Positions 14,362 to 53,102 of a stretch of DNA of 64,000 nucleotides are shown here, one piece after another. The stretch lies in assembly GCA_964626635.1 (NCBI GenBank), contig CAZVFY010000002.1:5300-69299 (forward strand). The letters run 5' to 3'. Within the stretch, counting starts at the first letter, position 1. Each line of letters starts with the position of its first letter. The notes beneath the pieces were generated by a model that worked only from the letters and a program-made list of their open reading frames with translations, searched no databases and was not told where the DNA came from. Both the position numbers and the translations under genes were made by a program. Source of the DNA: an uncultured Candidatus Saccharibacteria bacterium (GTDB taxonomy: Bacteria > Patescibacteriota > Minisyncoccia > Phycocordibacterales > UBA918).

Positions 14362-14435
14362 GCCACCTTAGCTCAGTTGGCTAGAGCAACGGATTTGTAA
14401 CCCGTAGGTCGTCAGTTCGAATCTGACAGGTGGCT
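14362..14435 (+). tRNA. tRNA-Thr (anticodon TGT)
   Basis: Cloverleaf by eye: acceptor GCCACCT/AGGTGGC, D-arm GCTC-AGTTGGCTA-GAGC, anticodon loop TTTGTAA, T-arm GTCAG-TTCGAAT-CTGAC; CCA not encoded. Confidence 0.8.
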
Positions 14436-14514
14436 CAGTTGGATAGAGTTTGAAACACTGTTTCAAAAGATTTGTAACGCACGCTTCGCTCAGGTCGTCA
14501 GTTCGAATCTGACA
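14433..14514 (+). other. degenerate partial tandem copy of the tRNA-Thr gene (pseudo-tRNA or att-like scar)
   Basis: Repeats the D-arm (GCTCAGTTGGATAGAG) and the identical 3' 32 nt AGGTCGTCAGTTCGAATCTGACAGGTGGCTCA; has no 5' acceptor strand; carries an extra TTTGAAAC/GTTTCAAA hairpin. Confidence 0.4.
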
Positions 14515-14574
14515 GGTGGCTCACATTCCACCCTTTATTTTCCAGCAAAATAAAGCTATACTCGACCCTAACTC

Positions 14575-23443: not shown

Positions 23444-24166
23444 ATGGAGACGAGCAACTCATTCGAACGCCTCATTGAAACGCTGTGGGAGCGCAAAATT
23501 TTATTTTTTGCTGCTTTTGCAATAATTGGATTATTGACCTACGCGTTACTCGCGTGGGTTGATTTTTTACCTGAGCCTCGCACAGTAGATCTTGATCCTC
23601 AAGCAACGTCTGAAAACAGTGTTGCACTGGGTGATAGTACTACAGCATTTCCGGCTCAAGAGATTGAAGTTGTATCGGGATCAGAAGATCCAGCAGCAGA
23701 GCCGGTAGAAGTGTTCGTGGCACCGGTACTACCAAACTCAATTTTTATACCTGCTACCGGTAAAACCATCCCGGTCTTGAACCCTAACTCTCGGTCAGTC
23801 GCTGATCTGGATGCGGCGCTACTAAATGGTGTCGTGCGACACCCTGACTCTGCGACGCTAGAAAGTGAGGGTAACGTGTTTATTTTAGGCCATTCTAGCT
23901 ATCTGCCGAATGTGTTCAATGAGTATTTTCAGGCTTTTAATGGTATCCAAGACCTGGAGTGGGGAGACGAAATTTTGGTCACTGCCAATGGCGAGACATA
24001 TGTGTACGTAGTTGACCGCGTGTTTGAAGCGCGCGCCTCAGAAGTAACCATCCCGCTGGTTGACACGGGCCGTCGGCTGACACTCGCCACCTGCGACAGT
24101 TTTGGTAGTGTCGAAGATCGGTTCATTGTCGAGGCGTCATTTGATCGCATCGATATGCAAATATAA
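23444..24166 (+). CDS. sortase family transpeptidase
   Basis: N-terminal TM helix; conserved His (VFILGHSS); catalytic LTLATCDSF (TLxTC motif); ATG 23444 preferred over the track's TTG at 23432. Confidence 0.75.
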   Translation: METSNSFERLIETLWERKILFFAAFAIIGLLTYALLAWVDFLPEPRTVDLDPQATSENSVALGDSTTAFPAQEIEVVSGSEDPAAEPVEVFVAPVLPNSIFIPATGKTIPVLNPNSRSVADLDAALLNGVVRHPDSATLESEGNVFILGHSSYLPNVFNEYFQAFNGIQDLEWGDEILVTANGETYVYVVDRVFEARASEVTIPLVDTGRRLTLATCDSFGSVEDRFIVEASFDRIDMQI

Positions 24167-44590: not shown

Positions 44591-44944
44591 ATGGAACAGT
44601 ACGAAGATAAGCAATTCTTGGAAACTACCGTCAAAGCCCTCGTTGATAACCCGGACGCCGTACAGATCAACCGCACCGTCGATGAAATGGGCGTGTTACT
44701 TACGCTCGATGTGCATGCTGATGATATGGGCAAGATCATCGGCCGCAGCGGCAACACTGCCAAGGCGATCCGCACTTTGTTGCGAGTGGTCGGCATGAAG
44801 CACGACGCCCGCGTCAACCTCAAAATCAACGAACCTGAAGGTGGCCGCGGCATGGATCCACAGATGCACGAAGCGATGCAAGAAGACAACCCTGTCAGCG
44901 ATACCAAGTCACTTGATGACGCGATTGATGATCTGAAGATTTAG
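44591..44944 (+). CDS. KH-domain RNA-binding protein (UPF0109/YlqC-like)
   Basis: GKIIGRSGNTAKAIRTLL KH type II GxxG motif; conserved position after rpsP; start MEQYEDK at 44591. Confidence 0.7.
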   Translation: MEQYEDKQFLETTVKALVDNPDAVQINRTVDEMGVLLTLDVHADDMGKIIGRSGNTAKAIRTLLRVVGMKHDARVNLKINEPEGGRGMDPQMHEAMQEDNPVSDTKSLDDAIDDLKI

Positions 44945-44987: not shown

Positions 44988-45029
44988 GCAACACACTGGT
45001 TTGTACTATGGTGCCTGTATACTACAGCT

Positions 45030-45815
45030 ATGAAACGCGCTCACTTTTACATACTCACCGCCGCCATTGGTCTCTTACTTATTCTTGCAATTGTTGTGTT
45101 TACTAACGAACCCGACGTAGCCCCAGGAGATACGGCTGGCAATACCACACAACCGCAACCAGCCCCGACCGAACCAGCAGAGCGAACTGCACCCCTCAGC
45201 ACCACCACCGCCGCTGGTACCTTCATCATCGACCCCGCCATCCCAATCAACGAGCGCTGTACCCCCGTGACCCTGGCGTGTCTGGAGGCGCAGCCGGAGT
45301 GGAACCCAACCATGGCGACAACCGGGATCGAGCGGATTGACCCGAGCGAGCTCACGCTGTTCGATGGTACCTACCAACTAGACTACCAATCCGTCCCGCG
45401 CAGTACCGATCCATTTACTTTCGTGACCGCTAAAGACGAGCACGACCCTGCATATTGCGCACAGTATGACCTCACCGGCTTGGATTTATTTATCCGTGAT
45501 GAGGGACCCTTAGAACCATCATGTTCAATTTACCCACCAGAAGCGTACCAAGAGTTCGTCATTCTTGATGAGAACGAGGCGGTGGTGCATGCGTATCGCT
45601 TATCGGATAAATATTCGTTATTAGAACTAAGGGCCGGCGTGCAACTAATGGGGAGGGTTAATTCGGTCGGTGCAGGATGTTGCAACAGTCAATACAGTAC
45701 ATCTCTCTCTCTCTCATTTATAAACTGGTCTGATTATAATCAGTTTTATAACCCTATCGTTACAGGGGTTTATATAAACCCTTACACCGGCGCCTTCAAC
45801 GACCGCACCAATTAG
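45030..45815 (+). CDS. signal-anchored extracytoplasmic protein, paralog family member A1
   Basis: MKRAHFYILTAAIGLLLILAIVVF anchor; conserved core TTTAAGTFIIDPAIPI.ERCTPVTLACLEAQPEW; contains an in-frame (TC)7 tract; TATACT box 6 nt upstream of the ATG. Confidence 0.6.
   Translation: MKRAHFYILTAAIGLLLILAIVVFTNEPDVAPGDTAGNTTQPQPAPTEPAERTAPLSTTTAAGTFIIDPAIPINERCTPVTLACLEAQPEWNPTMATTGIERIDPSELTLFDGTYQLDYQSVPRSTDPFTFVTAKDEHDPAYCAQYDLTGLDLFIRDEGPLEPSCSIYPPEAYQEFVILDENEAVVHAYRLSDKYSLLELRAGVQLMGRVNSVGAGCCNSQYSTSLSLSFINWSDYNQFYNPIVTGVYINPYTGAFNDRTN
45702..45715 (+). repeat. (TC)7 dinucleotide repeat inside paralog A1 coding sequence (currently in frame)
   Basis: tctctctctctctc encoding SLSLS. Confidence 0.8.
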
Positions 45816-45913
45816 TCGACACCCTTTTGGCCCCGTGCTACACTCGCCTTAGAACAGCCGCCCTTTCGGGCGGTTTCTGTTCTTTGATAACCTCAAACAA
45901 AAAGGAGGCAGTC

Positions 45914-48850
45914 ATGGCTGCAACTACAACAAGTGTCGATCGAAGTGTAACTGTAGAGGAGGGTGATCGTGCTCGCATCTACATCGAGCGCGAAGGAGAT
46001 CTAGCTACCTACTCAACTGTTTGGGTTACAGTCGTCTTTAGTGATCGGGACGAGAGCTGGGGCGACTTATCATTTCGCCGCGTCGGCGGTGATGGGGTGA
46101 GTTGGTTCAATCAAAATCAAAACCAAGGCGCAATCAATTTTGCCCCTGGTGATGATCGAGCGTACGTAGAATTCGACATCACTGAAGACGGTCAGGCTGA
46201 GGATTACGAATCCTTTGGAATCGAAATCTACAACCCAACCAATACTAATATCGGTGATTCGCGCGACTTTATCAAAGTTCCCGAACACGATACCGCGCCC
46301 AACACCAACCTGCCGCTCGTCCGCGTCGATGACGCGGTCGCAGCGCTCGAGGGTACGGGCCAAGAACTGGAGTGGAAGATCACGTACACCAACCCGTACA
46401 ACCGGGACTGGGATGGCAGCGAAGACGGCCGCACGGTCGTGCACTACCAGATCATCAATGACCGGACGGGGCAGGTGGTGGACAGCGGCTCGACCACCAA
46501 CAGCAACGTAGATGCTTACGAGGTAGAAACGCGCACCATCGACTACCGTCCGCCAGACGACAATGTCTACACCGGCGGCACGACGTACACCTTCCGGGTC
46601 ACCCGGCTCGAGTACCTCAGTGGCCAGACCGGCAATGTCGCGTCTGGCCTAGTGGTCGATGACGAGCTACCATATGTACCGCCGATCCCACCAGAAATCT
46701 CGATCCGCGGCGACACGGTCGACGAAGGCGAGGTTGCCAACGTCGAGCTGCGTCTCAACAAAGCGAGCGCGTCCGATGTCTCGGTCGTGGTTAGCACGTA
46801 CTACGGTACGTTTAATGAAGCCAACACTGGCGGCAGCGGCCTCGACTACGCTGGGCTTGTGGACCGTTCGTTCACTATCCCCGCCGGGGACACGAGCGTC
46901 ACGGTGCCGATCACGACGTTCACTGACAACATCTACAACGAAGGAGACGAACGCTTTGAAGTCCGGATCGAATCCGCCAGTGGCGCAACCATAGATGATG
47001 AAAGCGCCACGGTACGGATCCGGGATACCACGGTAGAACCGGAGCCAGTCCCTGACCCGGTCTTGTCCGGGTCGCAAGTATTCGAGTACAACCTCGCCTT
47101 GACCAGCGCGGAATCGATCATGGGTACCAATCGTTTGGTATCGGTGATCGAGTCCGAACCACTCTTGCTGCGTCTCGCAAAGACTTTGCAAGACGCTGGC
47201 AGCAATGTGATCGATGGTCTGGTGCAGGCTGGATTGTCGCTGATCGGGACTACTGCATACGCGGCCGAAGCCGATGTGCCACCTGTCCAGTCGTTCAACT
47301 CTATGGCCGACGAGTGGTATGAGTTCTTGTTCCCAAGTTCGTCGTACGGGCGTCTGCTCGCTAGTCTGCCAGATTACTACACCTCGTGGGATCTGGCGGT
47401 GCGTGATGTCGAGCTGCGAGTTGGTGACTACGTGGATGATCGGTTGGTGATCGGTCAGCCACTGTTCAGTGAAGATGGACTCGAAGTCGATGCAGGGGGT
47501 CGGACGATCTATAGCAGTCTGCAAGGTAGGTATGACGCTGTAGACAGAATGACCTCTCACTTCAGCAATGATGGCCATGCCTTTGATTGGGGTGGCCGGA
47601 TAACTGGTAATAACGATGCCTTCGTATTGGCTCCAATCGGAGCCTGGGTCGTTCACGCAGTTGATCATTATGTCAATGATCCAACCAACAATGGCTGGGG
47701 TAGTGATAGTAACAAAAATGATAACGGAGGGTTCGGAAATGTTGTTACGATTCGTGTTGCACACCCCAATGGCGCAGACGTTGATATAACGTTTGCTCAC
47801 CTTAAGAAAGGAAGTGTGCCCGATGCATTTCTGAAAGCAACGGAAGCCAATCCAGTCGAGGTTGATCAATACCAAATCCTTGGTTTGATGGGGAATACGG
47901 GTGCTGGCGATAAACACTTGCACATGCAGGTGGGAAACGGTATTGAAAACGGCATTGCTGTTATACCAAGTGAAGATATCGAGTCTAAACTTAACTTGAA
48001 TCCACCTGTCTACATGCTTGGCTTCGGCAATGCCGATATCGCCTCTCGCGCAGAATTGAAAGGAGATACCTCTCTGGCGCAAGATGCTGGCTTCCCAGCT
48101 GGCGATAGCCGTGGCAGCGAACCGAATGTGGTCAGTGGCATCCAATCCACCGTCGACTACGATGACTTCCGGGCCATCAACGACGCGTACTTCAACCCAC
48201 CACCCCAAGGCCCTCGCCAAATCATCACCACCGAATACGACGCCACTACCATTGGGTCGATTGCGGAGCGAGGTGGATGGACAGACATCTTGGACGGCAA
48301 CGCTTCACGAGTGAAGGTGCACGATCAAGACAACGAGTTGCGCTATAAACGCACGGACATTGAGGCCAGTGCGCGCACGGATGAACGGCACGAATCCAGA
48401 GTGCTAGTCACCGAGTTCGTCGTCGATCTTGCTGATGGTGTCGACCTCATCGGCGGCGAACTCGAACTTACGCTCGGGAAGCGCATCAAGCTTGACGCGT
48501 CTGGCCTCGACCAAGTCTCGCTGGCGGTGATCGCGGCCGAGATCGGCGACGATCTCGATCGCGCTGATCGCGATACGTTCGACTTCATCAACCCACTTTC
48601 TAACCAGGTGGGAGTGGATGAGAACTGGCGTCGCGGGGACACCGTTTCGTTTACGTTAAACGAGGCGGGCCTGACACATTTGGCCGCGGGCGGGGAACTG
48701 GCCGTGGCAACGTCGTACCATTTCGACAGTACGACCCCTCCCAATGACCGTAATGGCCGTTGGGACGAACTCCGCATCCAGATCGACGATGCGGATCTCG
48801 AACTGGAACTGCAGCTGCCAATCAACGGAGCTGACGAGTTCCTGTTCTAG
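45914..48850 (+). CDS. large Calx-beta and M23-peptidase-like domain protein without a signal peptide
   Basis: SD AAAGGAGG 5 nt upstream; Calx-beta-like segment (GDTVDEGEVANVELRLNKAS....ERFEVRIESASGATIDDESATVRIRD); M23-like GLMGNTGAGDKHLHMQV and AHPNGADVD; the last ~16 codons recur in downstream repeats. Confidence 0.65.
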   Translation: MAATTTSVDRSVTVEEGDRARIYIEREGDLATYSTVWVTVVFSDRDESWGDLSFRRVGGDGVSWFNQNQNQGAINFAPGDDRAYVEFDITEDGQAEDYESFGIEIYNPTNTNIGDSRDFIKVPEHDTAPNTNLPLVRVDDAVAALEGTGQELEWKITYTNPYNRDWDGSEDGRTVVHYQIINDRTGQVVDSGSTTNSNVDAYEVETRTIDYRPPDDNVYTGGTTYTFRVTRLEYLSGQTGNVASGLVVDDELPYVPPIPPEISIRGDTVDEGEVANVELRLNKASASDVSVVVSTYYGTFNEANTGGSGLDYAGLVDRSFTIPAGDTSVTVPITTFTDNIYNEGDERFEVRIESASGATIDDESATVRIRDTTVEPEPVPDPVLSGSQVFEYNLALTSAESIMGTNRLVSVIESEPLLLRLAKTLQDAGSNVIDGLVQAGLSLIGTTAYAAEADVPPVQSFNSMADEWYEFLFPSSSYGRLLASLPDYYTSWDLAVRDVELRVGDYVDDRLVIGQPLFSEDGLEVDAGGRTIYSSLQGRYDAVDRMTSHFSNDGHAFDWGGRITGNNDAFVLAPIGAWVVHAVDHYVNDPTNNGWGSDSNKNDNGGFGNVVTIRVAHPNGADVDITFAHLKKGSVPDAFLKATEANPVEVDQYQILGLMGNTGAGDKHLHMQVGNGIENGIAVIPSEDIESKLNLNPPVYMLGFGNADIASRAELKGDTSLAQDAGFPAGDSRGSEPNVVSGIQSTVDYDDFRAINDAYFNPPPQGPRQIITTEYDATTIGSIAERGGWTDILDGNASRVKVHDQDNELRYKRTDIEASARTDERHESRVLVTEFVVDLADGVDLIGGELELTLGKRIKLDASGLDQVSLAVIAAEIGDDLDRADRDTFDFINPLSNQVGVDENWRRGDTVSFTLNEAGLTHLAAGGELAVATSYHFDSTTPPNDRNGRWDELRIQIDDADLELELQLPINGADEFLF

Positions 48851-48900
48851 AACGAACAACTGATAGCACCCGTGGCGTCCGCGCCACGGGTGGTTTTTTA
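48795..48900 (+). repeat. R1: ~100 nt two-hairpin repeat (3' codons of the large gene plus terminator), followed by a conserved promoter
   Basis: GAACTGGAACTGCAGCTGCCAATC..GGAGCTGACGAGTTCCTGTTCTAG imperfect hairpin, then CACCCGTGGCGTCCGCGCCACGGGTGGTTTTTT; four copies in the island. Confidence 0.8.
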
Positions 48901-48936
48901 TCTTATTCTAAGCTACAGTGCTGCTATACTCACATT

Positions 48937-49647
48937 ATGAAACGATCTCATTTTTACATCCTCGTGGCCGCCATTGGCTTACTCGTTCTCTTGGCTATAT
49001 TTGCGTTGTACGCAAACGATACTGAAACTAGTCCAGTTACTACAATCACCAATACCACAGAACCGCAATCAGTCCCGTCTGAACCAACAGAATCTACCAC
49101 ACCGATCTCCACCACCACTGCAGCCGGCACCTTCATCATCGATCCAGCCATTCCGATCGAAGAGCGTTGCACCCCCGTGACGCTGGCGTGTTTGGCGGCG
49201 CAGCCGGAGTGGAGTCCTGCTACGGAATTCAACGGTATGAAACGGGTGGATCCCTTAGAATTATCAATGTTTACTGGTGACATTGAATTGCAAGAAACAG
49301 TTTTGGGAAAAACGCGGGATGTTTTTACCTTGGTACAGCCGTCAGGAGAACTCACAGAAAAATATTGCGCTGACAGAAACATTGCTGTCCCAAATGCAAT
49401 TTGTCCTAAATATGCACTACCTACTTATAATGAATTTGCTATTAAGATTACAGACACTGATGAGATCGTTCATGCGTATGAGCTTGTTAATAATAACTCA
49501 ACAACGTACGTGCCATACTGCGTACCGAGTCTGGAATACTGTGATGGATTGGGTGGAGATAGCGCTGTCGGAAGAGATGCGATTCCACATAAAATTGGAA
49601 TTATGATTTGGCAATGGGACGACATCAACAAAAAAACCCGAGCCTAG
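48937..49647 (+). CDS. signal-anchored extracytoplasmic protein, paralog A2
   Basis: MKRSHFYILVAAIGLLVLLAIFAL plus conserved core; A7 tract at 49630-49636 near the 3' end. Confidence 0.6.
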   Translation: MKRSHFYILVAAIGLLVLLAIFALYANDTETSPVTTITNTTEPQSVPSEPTESTTPISTTTAAGTFIIDPAIPIEERCTPVTLACLAAQPEWSPATEFNGMKRVDPLELSMFTGDIELQETVLGKTRDVFTLVQPSGELTEKYCADRNIAVPNAICPKYALPTYNEFAIKITDTDEIVHAYELVNNNSTTYVPYCVPSLEYCDGLGGDSAVGRDAIPHKIGIMIWQWDDINKKTRA

Positions 49648-49755
49648 ATGAGACCGATGAGAGAGAACTCAATATTACTAATCTATACACCGGAGAAATT
49701 AATCGGTTTATTCCAGTTAATGAACGCTAGCTCTACCTCATTACAATTAAAAAAG

Positions 49756-49826
49756 GGCCACGAGTTCTTGTTTTCAAACGAACAACTAATAACACCCGTG
49801 GCGTGCGCGCCACGGGTGGTTTTTTA
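49756..49826 (+). repeat. R2: partial copy of the repeat (terminator hairpin and flanks) with conserved promoter downstream
   Basis: GAGTTCTTGTTTTCAAACGAACAACTAATAACACCCGTGGCGTGCGCGCCACGGGTGGTTTTTT; following promoter ATCTTATTCTAAGCTACAGTGCTGCTATACT is identical to R1. Confidence 0.75.
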
Positions 49827-49862
49827 TCTTATTCTAAGCTACAGTGCTGCTATACTCTACGT

Positions 49863-50580
49863 ATGAAACGAACTCACTTCTACCTCCTTGCCACCGCCAT
49901 TGGCTTACTCATCCTCCTGAGTGTGTTTGCGCTGTACAAAAACGATACTACCAACGGGCCCGTAGCTTCGACCATTATTCCAGCCGCAGAACCACTTTCC
50001 ACCACCACTGCCAACGGCGACACTTTCATCACCGACCAATCCATCCCAATCGTGGAGCGCTGCACCCCCGTGACCCGCGCTTGTTTGGAGGTGCAGCCGG
50101 AGTGGGGGCCGACGATGGCGACGACCGGAATCGAGCGGGTTGAGCCGGGGGAGTTAATATATATATAATCCAGACTATATTACCTCAGTTAGTAATGCAA
50201 ATAATTTTGCAATTGTTCACACTGGCCTGGTACACAGTAATATGAACTGTAACGATCGTGGTATTAATCCTAATTCTGTAAACGGCTGGGGTGCACCGGT
50301 GAGTTGTGCGCAGCGCGACAAATCAGTTTTTACTGAATTACTCGTTATTGATGCAATTACTCAAGAACCACTACATGCATATAAAATTACTGGCAATTAC
50401 TCTTGGCTCGGTAGCTATCTAGAAGGGTGGAAGGTGGGAGGCTATCCGTTCGGCGGACAGCCAAATTATTTATATGTCACAATTTTCAATTGGTCTGATG
50501 ATAGTTATGCAGAGTTCTCTAGGCCGACATTGAATTACCGCCTCAACCCCTACACTGGCGAACTGACTGTAAATGACTAG
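49863..50580 (+). pseudogene. paralog A3, split into two ORFs by a frameshift at a (TA)5 tract
   Basis: 49863-50168 encodes the conserved N-terminal 101 aa and ends GELIYI*; 50242-50580 encodes a family-like C-terminus; adding one TA unit fuses them in frame. Confidence 0.6.
50158..50167 (+). repeat. (TA)5 dinucleotide repeat at the A3 frameshift point
   Basis: tatatatata; other paralogs have GAGTTGACGTTGTTTAAT at the equivalent position. Confidence 0.8.
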
Positions 50581-50616
50581 CTTTACGAGAACTTGCCGGA
50601 ATACAAAGGTGCCATC

Positions 50617-51237
50617 ATGAAACGCTCCCACTTCTACCTCCTCGCTACCGCTATCGGCCTCCTTATCCTCCTCGCGCTATTTGCGTTGTATACAAACACC
50701 ACTGACAACAGTCCTGCTACCATTAATGCACCTGCCGGCGCAACCACCTCGCCTGCAGCCACACCCCTCTCTACCACTACCGCAGCCGGCACCTTCCTCA
50801 TCGACCCCGCCATTCCGATCGCGGAGCGTTGCACCCCCGTGACCCTCGCTTGTTTGGAGGCGCAGCCGGAGTGGGGGCCGACGATGGCGACGACCGGAAT
50901 CAAGCGGGTTAAGCCGGGGGAGTTGACGTTGTTTAATAACCGCTATGAATTGGAACGCTTTCCAGTGCCTAAGGGTAGACAACCAGAACTAAGTCCATTT
51001 GAAATGGTCGTGCGCGCAGCAGATTTTAAAGAAGAGTACTGTGCACAGTATGACGATCCAGACCTGCGTCCAGGCCAACGTTGTAACATACTGCCGTACA
51101 CCGCATATACCGAAATGGCCATTGTTTTAAAAGGTACGGAAAAAGTGGTGCACGCGTATCGCACTACAGATGAATACTCGTTGCTGTATCCGTACTGGTT
51201 AGTGATGGGGGGGCGTGGAATATTACTAGCGGCTTAG
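50617..51237 (+). CDS. signal-anchored paralog A4, C-terminally truncated by a frameshift at a G7 tract
   Basis: MKRSHFYLLATAIGLLILLALFAL plus core nearly identical to A3 at DNA level; the +1 frame downstream to 51355 encodes a family-like C-terminus (KQQYGFTIRDWSG...). Confidence 0.6.
   Translation: MKRSHFYLLATAIGLLILLALFALYTNTTDNSPATINAPAGATTSPAATPLSTTTAAGTFLIDPAIPIAERCTPVTLACLEAQPEWGPTMATTGIKRVKPGELTLFNNRYELERFPVPKGRQPELSPFEMVVRAADFKEEYCAQYDDPDLRPGQRCNILPYTAYTEMAIVLKGTEKVVHAYRTTDEYSLLYPYWLVMGGRGILLAA
51207..51213 (+). repeat. G7 homopolymer at the A4 truncation point
   Basis: atgggggggcg; G8 would extend the ORF by ~40 codons with family homology. Confidence 0.8.
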
Positions 51238-51388
51238 GTACTAAACAGCAGTACGGTTTTACAATAAGAGATTGGTCCGGCGTCCTTAACGGCTACGCCG
51301 GTTACCGAGCGACTCCTGACGATGTTTTTGTACTTACTCAATCCGTACACTGGGCAGTTTGAGTTGTATTAGTTATTACCTTTATATC

Positions 51389-51490
51389 ACTCGAACTAGA
51401 ACTGCAGCTGCCAATCGGAGCTGACGAGTTCTTGTTCTAAGCAGTACAACTGATAGCACTCGTGGCGTCCGCGCCACGGGTGGTTTTTTT
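51389..51490 (+). repeat. R3: copy of the two-hairpin repeat with no large gene upstream
   Basis: CTCGAACTAGAACTGCAGCTGCCAATCGGAGCTGACGAGTTCTTGTTCTAA...CACTCGTGGCGTCCGCGCCACGGGTGGTTTTTTT; in-frame stop 9 codons upstream of the conserved part. Confidence 0.8.
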
Positions 51491-51512
51491 GTAAAAGTGT
51501 GCTATTTTTTTT

Positions 51513-52208
51513 ATGAAACGATTCATACTCTTACTGTTAACACTAATCATATTAATGTTCGCGTTGCACTACGTTCATTACAGTAAGAAAGCCAATTTAA
51601 TGATGAGTTGGTCTGAAACTCATAATCCCGGTATCAATACCACCCTTAATGAAGAAGAGTACTGCAATTATCTATCAGCTAGTTGCTTGCAAAATCAACC
51701 TGGCTGGGATCCAACACTTGAAACCGAGACCTTTTCACGAATTAGTCCGCAGGATGTAGAAATTTTTGCCTCCGAAGTGGGGGTGTCTTCACGATCATCT
51801 TTGGTAAACGAAATACCAAACTTCGAAATAATATTGCCAAATTACGTTGAAGGCCCAGAATATTGCACACAATGGTCTTCAAGCAAGTTTTTTATCACAG
51901 AACTCAAAGGGTATGACGTGCAGTGCTCAAAGTATCGCCCGGAGCTTTATCGTGAATTTGTTGTGCGATCTACAGACACTAATGAAATTATTCATGCTTA
52001 CAGACTAAAAGATAGTTATACCTTGCTGCCTCTTATTGCTACTGTAATGGAAGGTGGTCCGGGCATAAACTATGGTAGACCAGACAAAGGAGATTTTGGG
52101 TTTAGTGTTTATAGTAGCTTGCTACTCGATGATGGGAGGAGTTTTGATTTAGTGGCTAGTTATTACATTGATGTTCTTACCGGTAAGATTATTTCAATTC
52201 CAGATTAA
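51513..52208 (+). CDS. divergent member (A5) of the signal-anchored paralog family
   Basis: MKRFILLLLTLIILMFAL anchor; shared C-terminal motifs EYCTQW, YREFVV, EIIHAYRLKDSYTLL; T8 tract at 51505-51512 just upstream of the ATG. Confidence 0.55.
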   Translation: MKRFILLLLTLIILMFALHYVHYSKKANLMMSWSETHNPGINTTLNEEEYCNYLSASCLQNQPGWDPTLETETFSRISPQDVEIFASEVGVSSRSSLVNEIPNFEIILPNYVEGPEYCTQWSSSKFFITELKGYDVQCSKYRPELYREFVVRSTDTNEIIHAYRLKDSYTLLPLIATVMEGGPGINYGRPDKGDFGFSVYSSLLLDDGRSFDLVASYYIDVLTGKIISIPD

Positions 52209-52280
52209 TTTTTGTAATATATAAATCATACATCCGCCAATCTGCTTCAAGAAAGTCAGAAAACACATTTATAAATGTGG

Positions 52281-52380
52281 ATCTAGAACTAGAACTGCAG
52301 CTGCCAATCGGAGCTGACGAGTTCTTGTTCTAAGCAGTACAACTGATAGCACTCGTGGCGTCCGCGCCACGGGTGGTTTT
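52281..52380 (+). repeat. R4: copy of the two-hairpin repeat directly upstream of trmD
   Basis: Nearly identical to R3 over ~95 nt. Confidence 0.8.
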
Positions 52381-52427: not shown

Positions 52428-53102
52428 ATGTTGCACTTCCACCTCATCACCATTTTTCCTGATGTCTGCCGGGCGTACACCGACGCCAGTGTATTAGGGC
52501 GCGCCCAGAAAACCGATAAAGGCAAAGGTGCCAAAGTGCGCGGGCGGAAAATTACTGTGAGTTACTATAACCCCCGCGAGTATACGAATGGCAAACATAA
52601 AAAAGTCGACGACAAGCCCTACGGTGGCGGACCAGGTATGGTGATGAAAGCCGAGCCGATCATAAAGGCGTGGCAAGCGGCGGTGGGGCGCAAGCGAACA
52701 GCACAAATAAAAACGCTGATTACCTCACCGCGCGGGCGGGTGTTTGATCAGGCGATGGCCAAAGAACTGGCCGAGCAGTACGAGCACATCGTACTCATCG
52801 CTGGGCGTTACGAGGGGATCGATAGTCGTGTCGCGGCAGCATTGGATGCCGAGTACGTGTCGGTCGGGGACTACGTGCTGACCGGTGGGGAATTGCCGGC
52901 ACTAGCGATCGTTGATGCAACCGCCAGGCACGTGCAGGGTGTGTTAGGGGAGAGCGAGTCGCTTGAAGAGTCGCGTGCGACCACCGGCGAAGCGTACACC
53001 CGTCCGGAAGTCATTGAATGGAAGAAGAAAAAAATTGCTGTACCAAAGGTATTTGTGGCAGGGAATCATAAGGAGATTGAGAAGCGTCGGGCTAAACAAT
53101 AG
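52428..53102 (+). CDS. trmD: tRNA (guanine37-N1)-methyltransferase
   Basis: MLHFHLITIFPDV N-terminus; DDKPYGGGPGMVM SAM-binding motif; Lys-rich insertion near residue 30. Confidence 0.85.
   Translation: MLHFHLITIFPDVCRAYTDASVLGRAQKTDKGKGAKVRGRKITVSYYNPREYTNGKHKKVDDKPYGGGPGMVMKAEPIIKAWQAAVGRKRTAQIKTLITSPRGRVFDQAMAKELAEQYEHIVLIAGRYEGIDSRVAAALDAEYVSVGDYVLTGGELPALAIVDATARHVQGVLGESESLEESRATTGEAYTRPEVIEWKKKKIAVPKVFVAGNHKEIEKRRAKQ

Follow-up and report, generated by a model that had tools for sequence, protein, structure and literature searches.

We analysed a 64 kb stretch of DNA (64,000 nucleotides; "the window") from the genome of an uncultured member of the Patescibacteria. An island is wedged into the conserved rpsP-khpA-trmD cluster of this genome. 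It comprises one large gene (B), five small paralogous genes (A1 to A5) and four copies of a short element (R1 to R4), in the left-to-right order A1, B, R1, A2, R2, A3, A4, R3, A5, R4. The genes and the one promoter-like stretch that was delimited are as follows.

44591 to 44944, + strand: khpA, encoding a KH-domain protein; conserved, left edge of the island
45030 to 45815, + strand: A1, intact and directly upstream of B (from ORF and alignment)
45914 to 48850, + strand: B, 978 amino acids, with Calx-beta, a divergent M23 peptidase and a C-terminal jelly-roll domain
48900 to 48936, + strand: promoter-like stretch read from the sequence, putatively serving A2
48937 to 49731, + strand: A2, with a frameshift at an A7 run (49630-49636); the present ORF ends at 49647
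49863 to 50580, + strand: A3, with an internal disruption at about 50160-50240
50617 to 51371, + strand: A4, a pseudogene with two frameshifts, the first at a G7 run (51207-51213)
51513 to 52208, + strand: A5, intact, flanked by R3 and R4
52428 to 53102, + strand: trmD, conserved, right edge of the island; R4 is the last element before it

The A/B island

Contigs recovered from one SRA run and at least four JGI samples carry the array with 99.9-100% identity; the source data are JGI 3300040787, 3300040798, 3300040799 and 3300040801 and SRR7428122. Because it is near-identical in contigs from several samples, it is no assembly artefact. The arrangement is the same in all six contigs on record (at least four samples); none of them lacks A5, and no population variants were found at the R sites. 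The island is lineage-specific, and we did not find it at 80 khpA-trmD loci of relatives (Paceibacteria-type genomes). The gene order of B, hairpins, promoter and A also occurs in a distant lineage (L102), and by this comparison it appears to be ancestral. Precomputed Pfam hits for the called genes between 35.9 kb and 62.2 kb of the window, that is, from 13 kb upstream to 10 kb downstream, included no integrase, transposase or other recombinase.

The A proteins have an N-terminal membrane anchor, a Thr/Pro-rich linker and a Cys-containing domain. The family has no match in Pfam or NCBIfam, an AF2 model of A had no fold match in the PDB, and a literature search on the A/B protein pair found nothing relevant. 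A5 is the most divergent paralogue, with 26-34% identity to the others and a GC content of 38.8%. Every A gene has its own promoter-like box, recognised as a sequence motif only. Those of A1, A2 and A3 have the form TGnTATACT and lie 6 nt before the ATG (in A2 this is the extended -10 box TGCTATACT at 48923-48931); that upstream of A5 is TGCTATTTT. Since three of the five A genes (A2, A3 and A4) are disrupted pseudogenes, the array is decaying.

The M23 peptidase domain of B is divergent, with HxxxD and HxH motifs, and B looks like a cell-wall hydrolase. Its last 170 amino acids form a domain that is present in other proteins. A fold search with this C-terminal domain returned a jelly-roll resembling a TGF-beta propeptide or a CBM. 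In the AF2 model, residues E144-Q159 lie in the final strands (pLDDT about 85), and the tail is disordered. The LxLE strand is kept in every homologous domain examined, and the tail ADEFLF has its counterpart in the C-terminal ADAFVF of P0017, a homologue with 35% identity. With its orphan Calx-beta/M23 protein and its membrane-anchored paralogues, which form a hypervariable and partly decayed array, the island may interest students of surface or cell-wall-active protein variation in episymbiotic Patescibacteria.

The R copies and their hairpins

A sequence-only reading of the window had described R as a two-hairpin element present in four copies. A degenerate 37-nt pattern confirmed all four at the places described, with exactly 4 matches in the window (0.00 expected from shuffles), all within one 3.6 kb stretch (48.8-52.4 kb). 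The two-hairpin description holds for R1, R3 and R4. In R2 the coding part is reduced to its final 17 nt, ahead of the spacer and terminator.

48796 to 48851, + strand: R1 hairpin 1, encoding LELELQLPINGADEFLF and the stop codon of B; -23.8 kcal/mol
48867 to 48899, + strand: R1 intrinsic terminator (predicted), with an 11-bp stem, a 4-nt loop and a T6 run
49760 to 49825, + strand: R2, the last 17 nt of the B coding sequence, spacer and terminator (stem 49793-49818)
51390 to 51489, + strand: R3, non-coding; hairpin 1 at 51393-51437, terminator stem at 51457-51482, T7 run
52274 to 52380, + strand: R4, non-coding; hairpin 1 at 52284-52332, terminator stem at 52350-52375, followed by TTTTCT

Both hairpins fold as the earlier description had it, with z-scores of -4 to -5.6 against shuffles. 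Folding energies are -19 to -24 kcal/mol for R1, R3 and R4, versus -7 kcal/mol for R2, which is without hairpin 1. R3 and R4 had been given as about 95% identical, which understates their likeness: they share a perfect run of 95 nt (51393-51487 and 52286-52380) and are 99% identical overall. The homology to B starts at about 52274 in R4 and at 51390 in R3, which gives R4 roughly 10 nt more on the 5′ side. The in-frame stop reported just before the conserved part is present but lies 9 codons upstream of R3 and 31 codons upstream of R4, and neither copy has a credible start codon. The coding parts of the relics are 6-20 codons long and have no start codon. Downstream of R1 and R2 the sequences are indeed identical, as reported; the shared run is 52 nt (48880-48931 and 49806-49857) rather than a 36-nt promoter, and it runs from the 3′ terminator arm through the T-run into a 32-nt stretch that resembles a promoter and includes TGCTATACT.

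All four copies have an 11-bp terminator stem with 8-9 GC pairs and a 4-nt loop, followed by a T-run (T6-T7 in R1-R3, TTTTCT in R4). The terminator of R1 begins 16 nt after the stop codon of B. The four lie downstream of B, A2, A4 and A5, all on the + strand and co-oriented. Changes across the copies are limited to one stem pair (C-G to U-G) and loop substitutions, and between strains no segment is better conserved than the terminator (97%). Relatives also have a terminator just upstream of trmD.

R is confined to this locus. Searches with nhmmer and a covariance model found no further copy in the window; extended to about 1-1.4 Mb of related loci, they returned only the known copies and generic terminators (in L095 and L102). 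Looking for further copies in relatives, as had been proposed, yielded none at the 80 khpA-trmD loci. A scan of a genome-contig collection with the terminator pattern gave 0 hits, and a scan of a metagenome-contig collection with a pattern of coding end plus spacer gave 4, all chance matches. We rejected a dispersed repeat or mobile element because neither these scans nor the two model searches gave dispersed copies. Rfam had nothing at gathering score; chance-level CRISPR-DR29 hits fell on the terminator stem (E = 0.4-0.8).

Origin of the R copies

The coding part of R is the last 17-20 codons of B. In the protein it is predicted to form the last beta-strand and the tail of the jelly-roll; it is an old protein feature. 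Capture of the C-terminus of B from a pre-existing palindromic element was considered and rejected, as distant homologues of the protein retain both strand and tail. The DNA encoding the ...ELEL...EFLF peptide is self-complementary (GAAC...GTTC), which is why the end of B folds as a hairpin. In the core, R1 differs from R3/R4 by 3-4 substitutions, all synonymous or stop-to-stop, and by one whole-codon deletion (p about 0.006-0.07). These synonymous changes and the in-frame deletion indicate that R1 and R3/R4 diverged under coding constraint and that coding was lost recently, and speak against long maintenance as non-coding DNA. These comparisons give no support to the claim that selection acts on the element instead of the peptide: the peptide end is old, the changes are synonymous, and between strains hairpin 1 is 89% identical versus 86% for the rest of the 3′ end of B. 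That hairpin 1 is no better conserved than the 3′ body of B speaks against an ancient element.

Positions 48834-49023 recur, at 85% identity and 926 nt further on, as 49760-49949. R2 marks the junction of a 926-nt tandem duplication whose left breakpoint lay 17 nt before the stop codon of B. We consider it fairly probable (roughly 60%) that the R copies are duplication/deletion relics of a 3′ module of B that act as terminators, and not a new kind of element. Among the options offered by the sequence-only reading (recombination site, footprint of lost copies of the large gene, RNA signal), the footprint appears best supported. R would be the 3′-terminal module of B, made of the codons for the last strand and tail and, 16 nt on, a Rho-independent terminator, and the extra copies would have arisen as relics during expansion of the A/B island. 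R3 and R4 may derive from a different, formerly translated allele or paralogue of B, the body of which is now gone; a spacer of the R3/R4 type, TAAGCAGTAC, lies behind an intact B′ in the related strain L007. They would then have been copied or homogenised very recently. We infer, rather than see, the loss of a full B at R2, R3 and R4, because no trace of the 5′ end or body of B rises above the shuffle background beside them. At present the R copies probably end transcription of each A unit, with R4 insulating trmD, and hairpin 1 would be carried along, adding at most some 3′-end stability. As repeats, the R copies are obvious substrates for rearrangement of the array, and through the R3/R4 repeat the A5 unit could be gained or lost by RecA-type recombination.

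Two features of R3 and R4 sit less easily with relics. Their repeat starts at the base of hairpin 1 and stops where the T-run does; that both ends fall on structural boundaries is somewhat unexpected under random breakpoints and counts against this reading. Moreover, the A genes beside R3 and R4 share under 30% identity despite the 99% identity of the two copies, so a separate recent event is needed, whether copying, gene conversion or cassette insertion. By analogy with integron attC sites, or with the conserved blocks delimiting orphan cassettes in polymorphic-toxin loci, R could be a dedicated boundary, either a recombination site or a selected portable homology for gain, loss and shuffling of A cassettes. 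An R copy lies 18-65 nt past each of A2, A4 and A5; the outlier A5 sits between the 95-nt perfect direct repeats, and the layout R3-A5-R4 is the expected product of a circle carrying A5 and R that integrates at a resident R. Between strains, identity also falls sharply on entering A2, where it is 41-71% against 84-97% in the terminator and promoter, and the variable R sites are mosaic, with all four combinations of C or T at column 58 and spacer type. This mosaic signal, however, is a single transition that is possibly recurrent, and the low GC content of A5 is partly compositional, as A5 is without the GC-rich linker of the other A genes. The stretch examined has no recombinase gene, a direct reading shows no attC core motifs, every A gene has its own promoter-like box, R2 is without hairpin 1, and A5 is present in the same arrangement in each of the six contigs. 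We regard such a boundary as distinctly unlikely, and the support for the recombination-site idea, namely perfect repeats flanking a divergent A5, as circumstantial. Slightly less probable again is a version in which R is an integrase-free cassette boundary, with about 100 nt of terminator and homology taken from the 3′ end of B, A5 a recent gain, and hairpin 1 kept for 3′-end stability. If true, R would let a lineage with a reduced genome acquire, drop and reshuffle fast-evolving membrane-anchored A proteins via homologous recombination.

It is unlikely, though less so than a cassette boundary, that hairpin 1 and the terminator form a selected RNA module, be it a 3′-end stabiliser, a processing signal or a small RNA of about 95 nt made from R3/R4. 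The hairpin is strong and is kept in both non-coding copies, and TATA-rich -10-like hexamers lie just 5′ of R3 (TTTATAT) and R4 (TTTATAAAT). The stability of R1 hairpin 1 exceeds that of 99.3% of synonymous recodings (p about 0.007); the signal is weaker in L007 (p = 0.034) and L102 (p = 0.16), and the peptide alone yields -12.6 kcal/mol on average. The orthologue in L102 has a weak hairpin over the last codons and stop, and an extra strong hairpin before the terminator. Covariation between the copies, which the sequence-only reading had pointed to as a check, did not emerge: there is one compensatory pair (G-C to A-U), a single event common to R3 and R4 in which both changes are synonymous Leu, and the score, reached by 45 of 500 shuffles, is not significant. 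In L007 one pair of hairpin 1 is broken, R2 has lost the hairpin altogether, R3 and R4 are too young for their conservation to inform on selection, and Rfam has no match. Evidence for selection on hairpin 1 in its own right is weak; given some structure signal, a secondary RNA role is conceivable. At the other extreme, the extra copies might be purely neutral debris of duplication and deletion, functionless even as terminators. The decay of the array, the youth of R3/R4 and the confinement of R to one locus fit with this. We find it very improbable, as the terminator stems are perfect in all four copies bar the C-G to U-G change, the terminator is the segment best conserved between strains, and relatives carry one before trmD too. 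The relic reading, in which the terminators are retained, carries a caution: what looks like a repeated, well-folding and conserved non-coding element may have been left behind very recently by the 3′ end of a gene, with a hairpin dictated largely by the peptide formerly encoded.

Comparison with known systems

CDI (cdiA-CT/cdiI) and Rhs polymorphic toxin loci contain orphan cassettes of effector fragments and immunity genes. The island resembles them in that a large gene, whose protein appears to be exported, stands beside an array of small paralogues that have diverged and of which some are degraded; truncated pieces of the large gene lie among these small genes and share a short homology block. 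In contrast to these loci, the relic here is limited to the last 16-20 codons and has no toxin domain. An orphan cassette holds a toxin-domain fragment with its cognate immunity gene, whereas no B-derived sequence other than the relics was found here. Recombination at the conserved block cannot change B, since the block occupies its extreme 3′ end; B also has no VENN or PxxxxDPxGL demarcation motif. The gene order is different too, with the small gene ahead of the large one, and a promoter-like box stands before every small gene.

Integron attC sites have an inverse core RYYYAAC and a core GTTRRRY at the ends of an imperfect palindrome, and their cassettes are mostly promoterless; CALIN arrays lack an integrase. 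R is like these systems in that the units of a co-oriented array carry at their 3′ ends an imperfect hairpin-forming element some 60-100 nt long. Its ends read CTCGAAC ... GTTCTAG/A, in which the YYY and RRR positions misfit the attC cores. Unlike attC, R holds a terminator and is coding-derived, its units have their own promoter-like boxes, and no integrase gene is nearby, although this absence alone is not decisive against a CALIN because CALINs lack one. REP/BIME palindromes are likewise stable stem-loops at the 3′ ends of transcription units, where they could block 3′-5′ exonucleases. R differs from them in not being dispersed: its four copies lie within 3.6 kb, with none elsewhere in the window or in the loci of relatives.

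A further likeness is to intrinsic (Rho-independent) terminators. Unlike these, the terminator of R is preceded by a larger, coding-derived hairpin, and the whole is repeated as a module of about 100 nt. In its GC-rich stem and T-run, its position 16 nt past a stop codon or the relic of one, and its shared orientation with the genes, the second hairpin of R appears to be an intrinsic terminator in both structure and position.

The khpA–trmD island and its genes

The window is part of the 155-kb metagenomic contig Ga0450804_0837637 (JGI 3300040801) from an uncultured Patescibacteria/Paceibacteria-type bacterium, whose TrmD shares at most 74% identity with MAGs labelled Nomurabacteria, Kaiserbacteria or Paceibacterota. 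The conserved genes khpA and trmD enclose an island of ~7.5 kb with the order A1, B, R1, A2, R2, A3, A4, R3, A5, R4. B encodes a large 978-aa protein and A1–A5 are small membrane-anchored paralogues. R1–R4 are repeats with the end of B's coding sequence, where the first hairpin ("hairpin 1") covers the last codons and stop, a spacer and a second hairpin.

khpA, 44591-44944, left neighbour of the island
A1, 45030-45815, first gene of the island
B, 45914-48850, between A1 and R1
R2, 49760-49825, last 17 nt of the coding part only, no hairpin 1
trmD, 52428-53102, right neighbour of the island

The whole array is 99.9-100% identical across contigs from at least four samples, and is therefore real. 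The khpA–trmD gap measures 54-2205 nt in 71 related genomes, and none of 80 khpA–trmD loci retrieved from relatives encodes A or B; thus, the island is specific to this lineage. Given its variable size and content among related Patescibacteria, the gap is a recurrent site of gene-content variation. A NUDIX-like gene (~143 aa) and other small accessory genes often occupy it in relatives (loci L022-L101).

A-family proteins are anchored in the membrane by their N-terminus and also contain a Thr/Pro-rich linker and a domain in which four cysteines are conserved. Family and fold searches both returned no match for A, and the family accounts for just six clusters among 5.8 billion. In other lineages (L006, L009) an A gene again precedes a B-like gene, and in L007 and L102 hairpins, a TGnTATACT box and a further A gene come after a B-type gene, indicating that the A-B-A order is ancestral. 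Of the five A genes in this genome, A1 and A5 alone remain intact. A frameshift interrupts A2 at an A7 run (49630-49636), A3 is disrupted internally, and A4 carries two frameshifts, of which the first falls at a G7 run (51207-51213). Both run lengths are unchanged in all assemblies; the homopolymer frameshifts could mark simple decay or a phase-variation-like mechanism that switches these membrane-anchored proteins. A5 (51513-52208), the most divergent paralogue, has a GC content of 38.8% (window, 52%) and may be a foreign acquisition, although its missing GC-rich linker accounts for part of the difference. A 138-nt tract of A3 and A4 (50018-50155 and 50787-50924) is 89% identical, well above the rest of both genes, which suggests gene conversion in the conserved ERCTPVT...QPEW region.

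An extended -10 box, TGnTATACT, ends 6 nt before the ATG of A1, A2 and A3 (45015-45023, 48923-48931 and 49849-49857). With this spacing and no Shine-Dalgarno sequence, their mRNAs may be leaderless, whereas AAGGAGG precedes the ATG of B. Between A1 and B lies a terminator-like hairpin (45856-45875; AGCCGCCC-TTTC-GGGCGGTT, then TCTGTTCTTT) with a promoter-like TCGACA-17-TACACT upstream. Attenuation is one possible role; another is to uncouple B from A1 through an internal promoter.

B is essentially an orphan protein with three recognisable parts, one of them a Calx-beta domain. A divergent M23 peptidase scores 21 bits, under threshold, with HxxxD and HxH motifs present; the aligned region of the homologue P0015 scores 36 bits. 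The C-terminal domain (170 aa) is modelled as a jelly-roll similar to TGF-beta propeptide and CBM folds, and an exhaustive profile search also detected it in P0017 and in two internal repeats of P0018. Three further homologues (P0011, P0012, P0019) share the Calx-beta and M23 core with RTX calcium-binding repeats replacing the jelly-roll, so the family swaps C-terminal modules.

Elsewhere in the window, the 3′ half of tRNA-Thr(TGT) (14362-14436) recurs 86 nt later as an exact 32-nt copy (14406-14437 = 14492-14523) that resembles an attachment-site relic left by an integrated or excised element. At 23946-24043 ARAGORN calls a 98-nt tRNA-Gly(GCC), but the Rfam tRNA model falls under its gathering score there, so this is probably either a false positive or an unusual tRNA with an interruption.

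Anatomy and origin of the R copies

The sequence-only reading proposed four copies of a two-hairpin element. A degenerate pattern recovers exactly four (expected 0.00), profile and covariance-model searches found no more, and the alignment agrees with the proposed consensus. Both hairpins fold as described, except that R2 lacks hairpin 1. In-frame stops, placed by that reading just before R3 and R4, exist but lie 9 and 31 codons upstream, respectively. R3 and R4 have a perfect 95-nt run in common, with homology to B extending ~10 nt further 5′ in R4, and R1 and R2 are identical over 52 nt, from the terminator 3′ arm through the promoter-like TGCTATACT box. R thus combines an intrinsic terminator with the relic of a gene end.

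The coding sequence preceded the palindrome. The B strand D-L-E-L-E aligns with T-L-T-L-E, S-L-E-F-S and T-L-E-L-S in homologous domains, and the end of P0017, ADAFVF, lines up with the tail ADEFLF. In the structural model, E144-Q159 lie in the final strands (pLDDT ~85) and the last seven residues are disordered. Hairpin 1 thus encodes the last strand of an old domain in its 5′ arm and the tail in its 3′ arm. Capture of a pre-existing palindromic element by B was rejected because strand and tail are shared with distant homologue domains. GAA (Glu) and TTC (Phe) are reverse complements, so an ELEL...EFLF-type peptide is self-complementary by construction; random synonymous recodings fold at a mean of -12.6 kcal/mol.

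The copies have separate histories. A 190-nt repeat (48834-49023 and 49760-49949; 85% identity, 926 nt start to start) begins in the last 17 nt of B, crosses the terminator and promoter and enters an A gene, which identifies R2 as a tandem-duplication junction. Over the 17-codon core, R3 and R4 differ from R1 by CTG>CTA, CTG>TTG and TAG>TAA (R4 also by CTC>CTA) and by loss of one whole codon (AAC). All substitutions are synonymous (p ~0.006-0.07 by model), the pattern expected for divergence while still translated. On this pattern, R3 and R4 would descend from a different B allele or paralogue whose gene body was lost recently; no other B remnants survive beside R2, R3 or R4. Consistent with this origin, their spacer type (TAAGCAGTAC) occurs behind the intact B-type gene of the related strain L007. 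R3 and R4 are nearly identical, yet the neighbouring A4 and A5 share <30% identity; this calls for recent copying, gene conversion, or recombination at R that brought in the A5 unit.

Selection on hairpin 1

Is the structure itself maintained? One pair changes from G-C in R1 to A-U in R3/R4, but this is a single event of two synonymous Leu changes, and the covariation score was reached in 45 of 500 shuffles. The codon choice of R1 makes its hairpin more stable than 99.3% of recodings, a signal that weakens in L007 (p = 0.034), where one pair is broken, and in L102 (p = 0.16). In the latter, a distant orthologue, the final codons and stop form a weaker hairpin, and an additional, strong hairpin of non-coding sequence precedes the terminator. 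Between strains, identity is 89% for hairpin 1, 86% for the rest of the B 3′ end and 97% for the terminator, and R2 lacks hairpin 1. A stable 3′ structure in the B mRNA may be under mild selection. We found no evidence that it explains persistence of the non-coding copies, which are too young to inform on this. The earlier preference for the element, rather than the peptide, as the selected unit is unsupported, although its sequence description was accurate and its list of explanations contained the correct one.

Transcription ending, recombination and known systems

By sequence, the second hairpin of every copy qualifies as an intrinsic terminator, and a terminator also lies just upstream of trmD in relatives. 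On this sequence evidence, the best-supported present role of R is transcription ending: the copies would end each A transcription unit and shield trmD from read-through. R3 and R4 also flank a 0.8-kb unit as direct repeats that match perfectly over 95 nt. RecA-dependent recombination between such repeats can delete or duplicate the enclosed unit; none of the six recorded contigs carries a variant of this sort. A dedicated site-specific system acting at R is unlikely, given that the genes called between -13 and +10 kb include no recombinase, that R lacks attC-type core motifs and that every unit carries a promoter-like box of its own. The array is similar to the orphan-cassette arrays of polymorphic toxin loci and superficially to integron cassette arrays, but the defining features of both are lacking. 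The R array adds one more example of kinds already known and holds little surprise.
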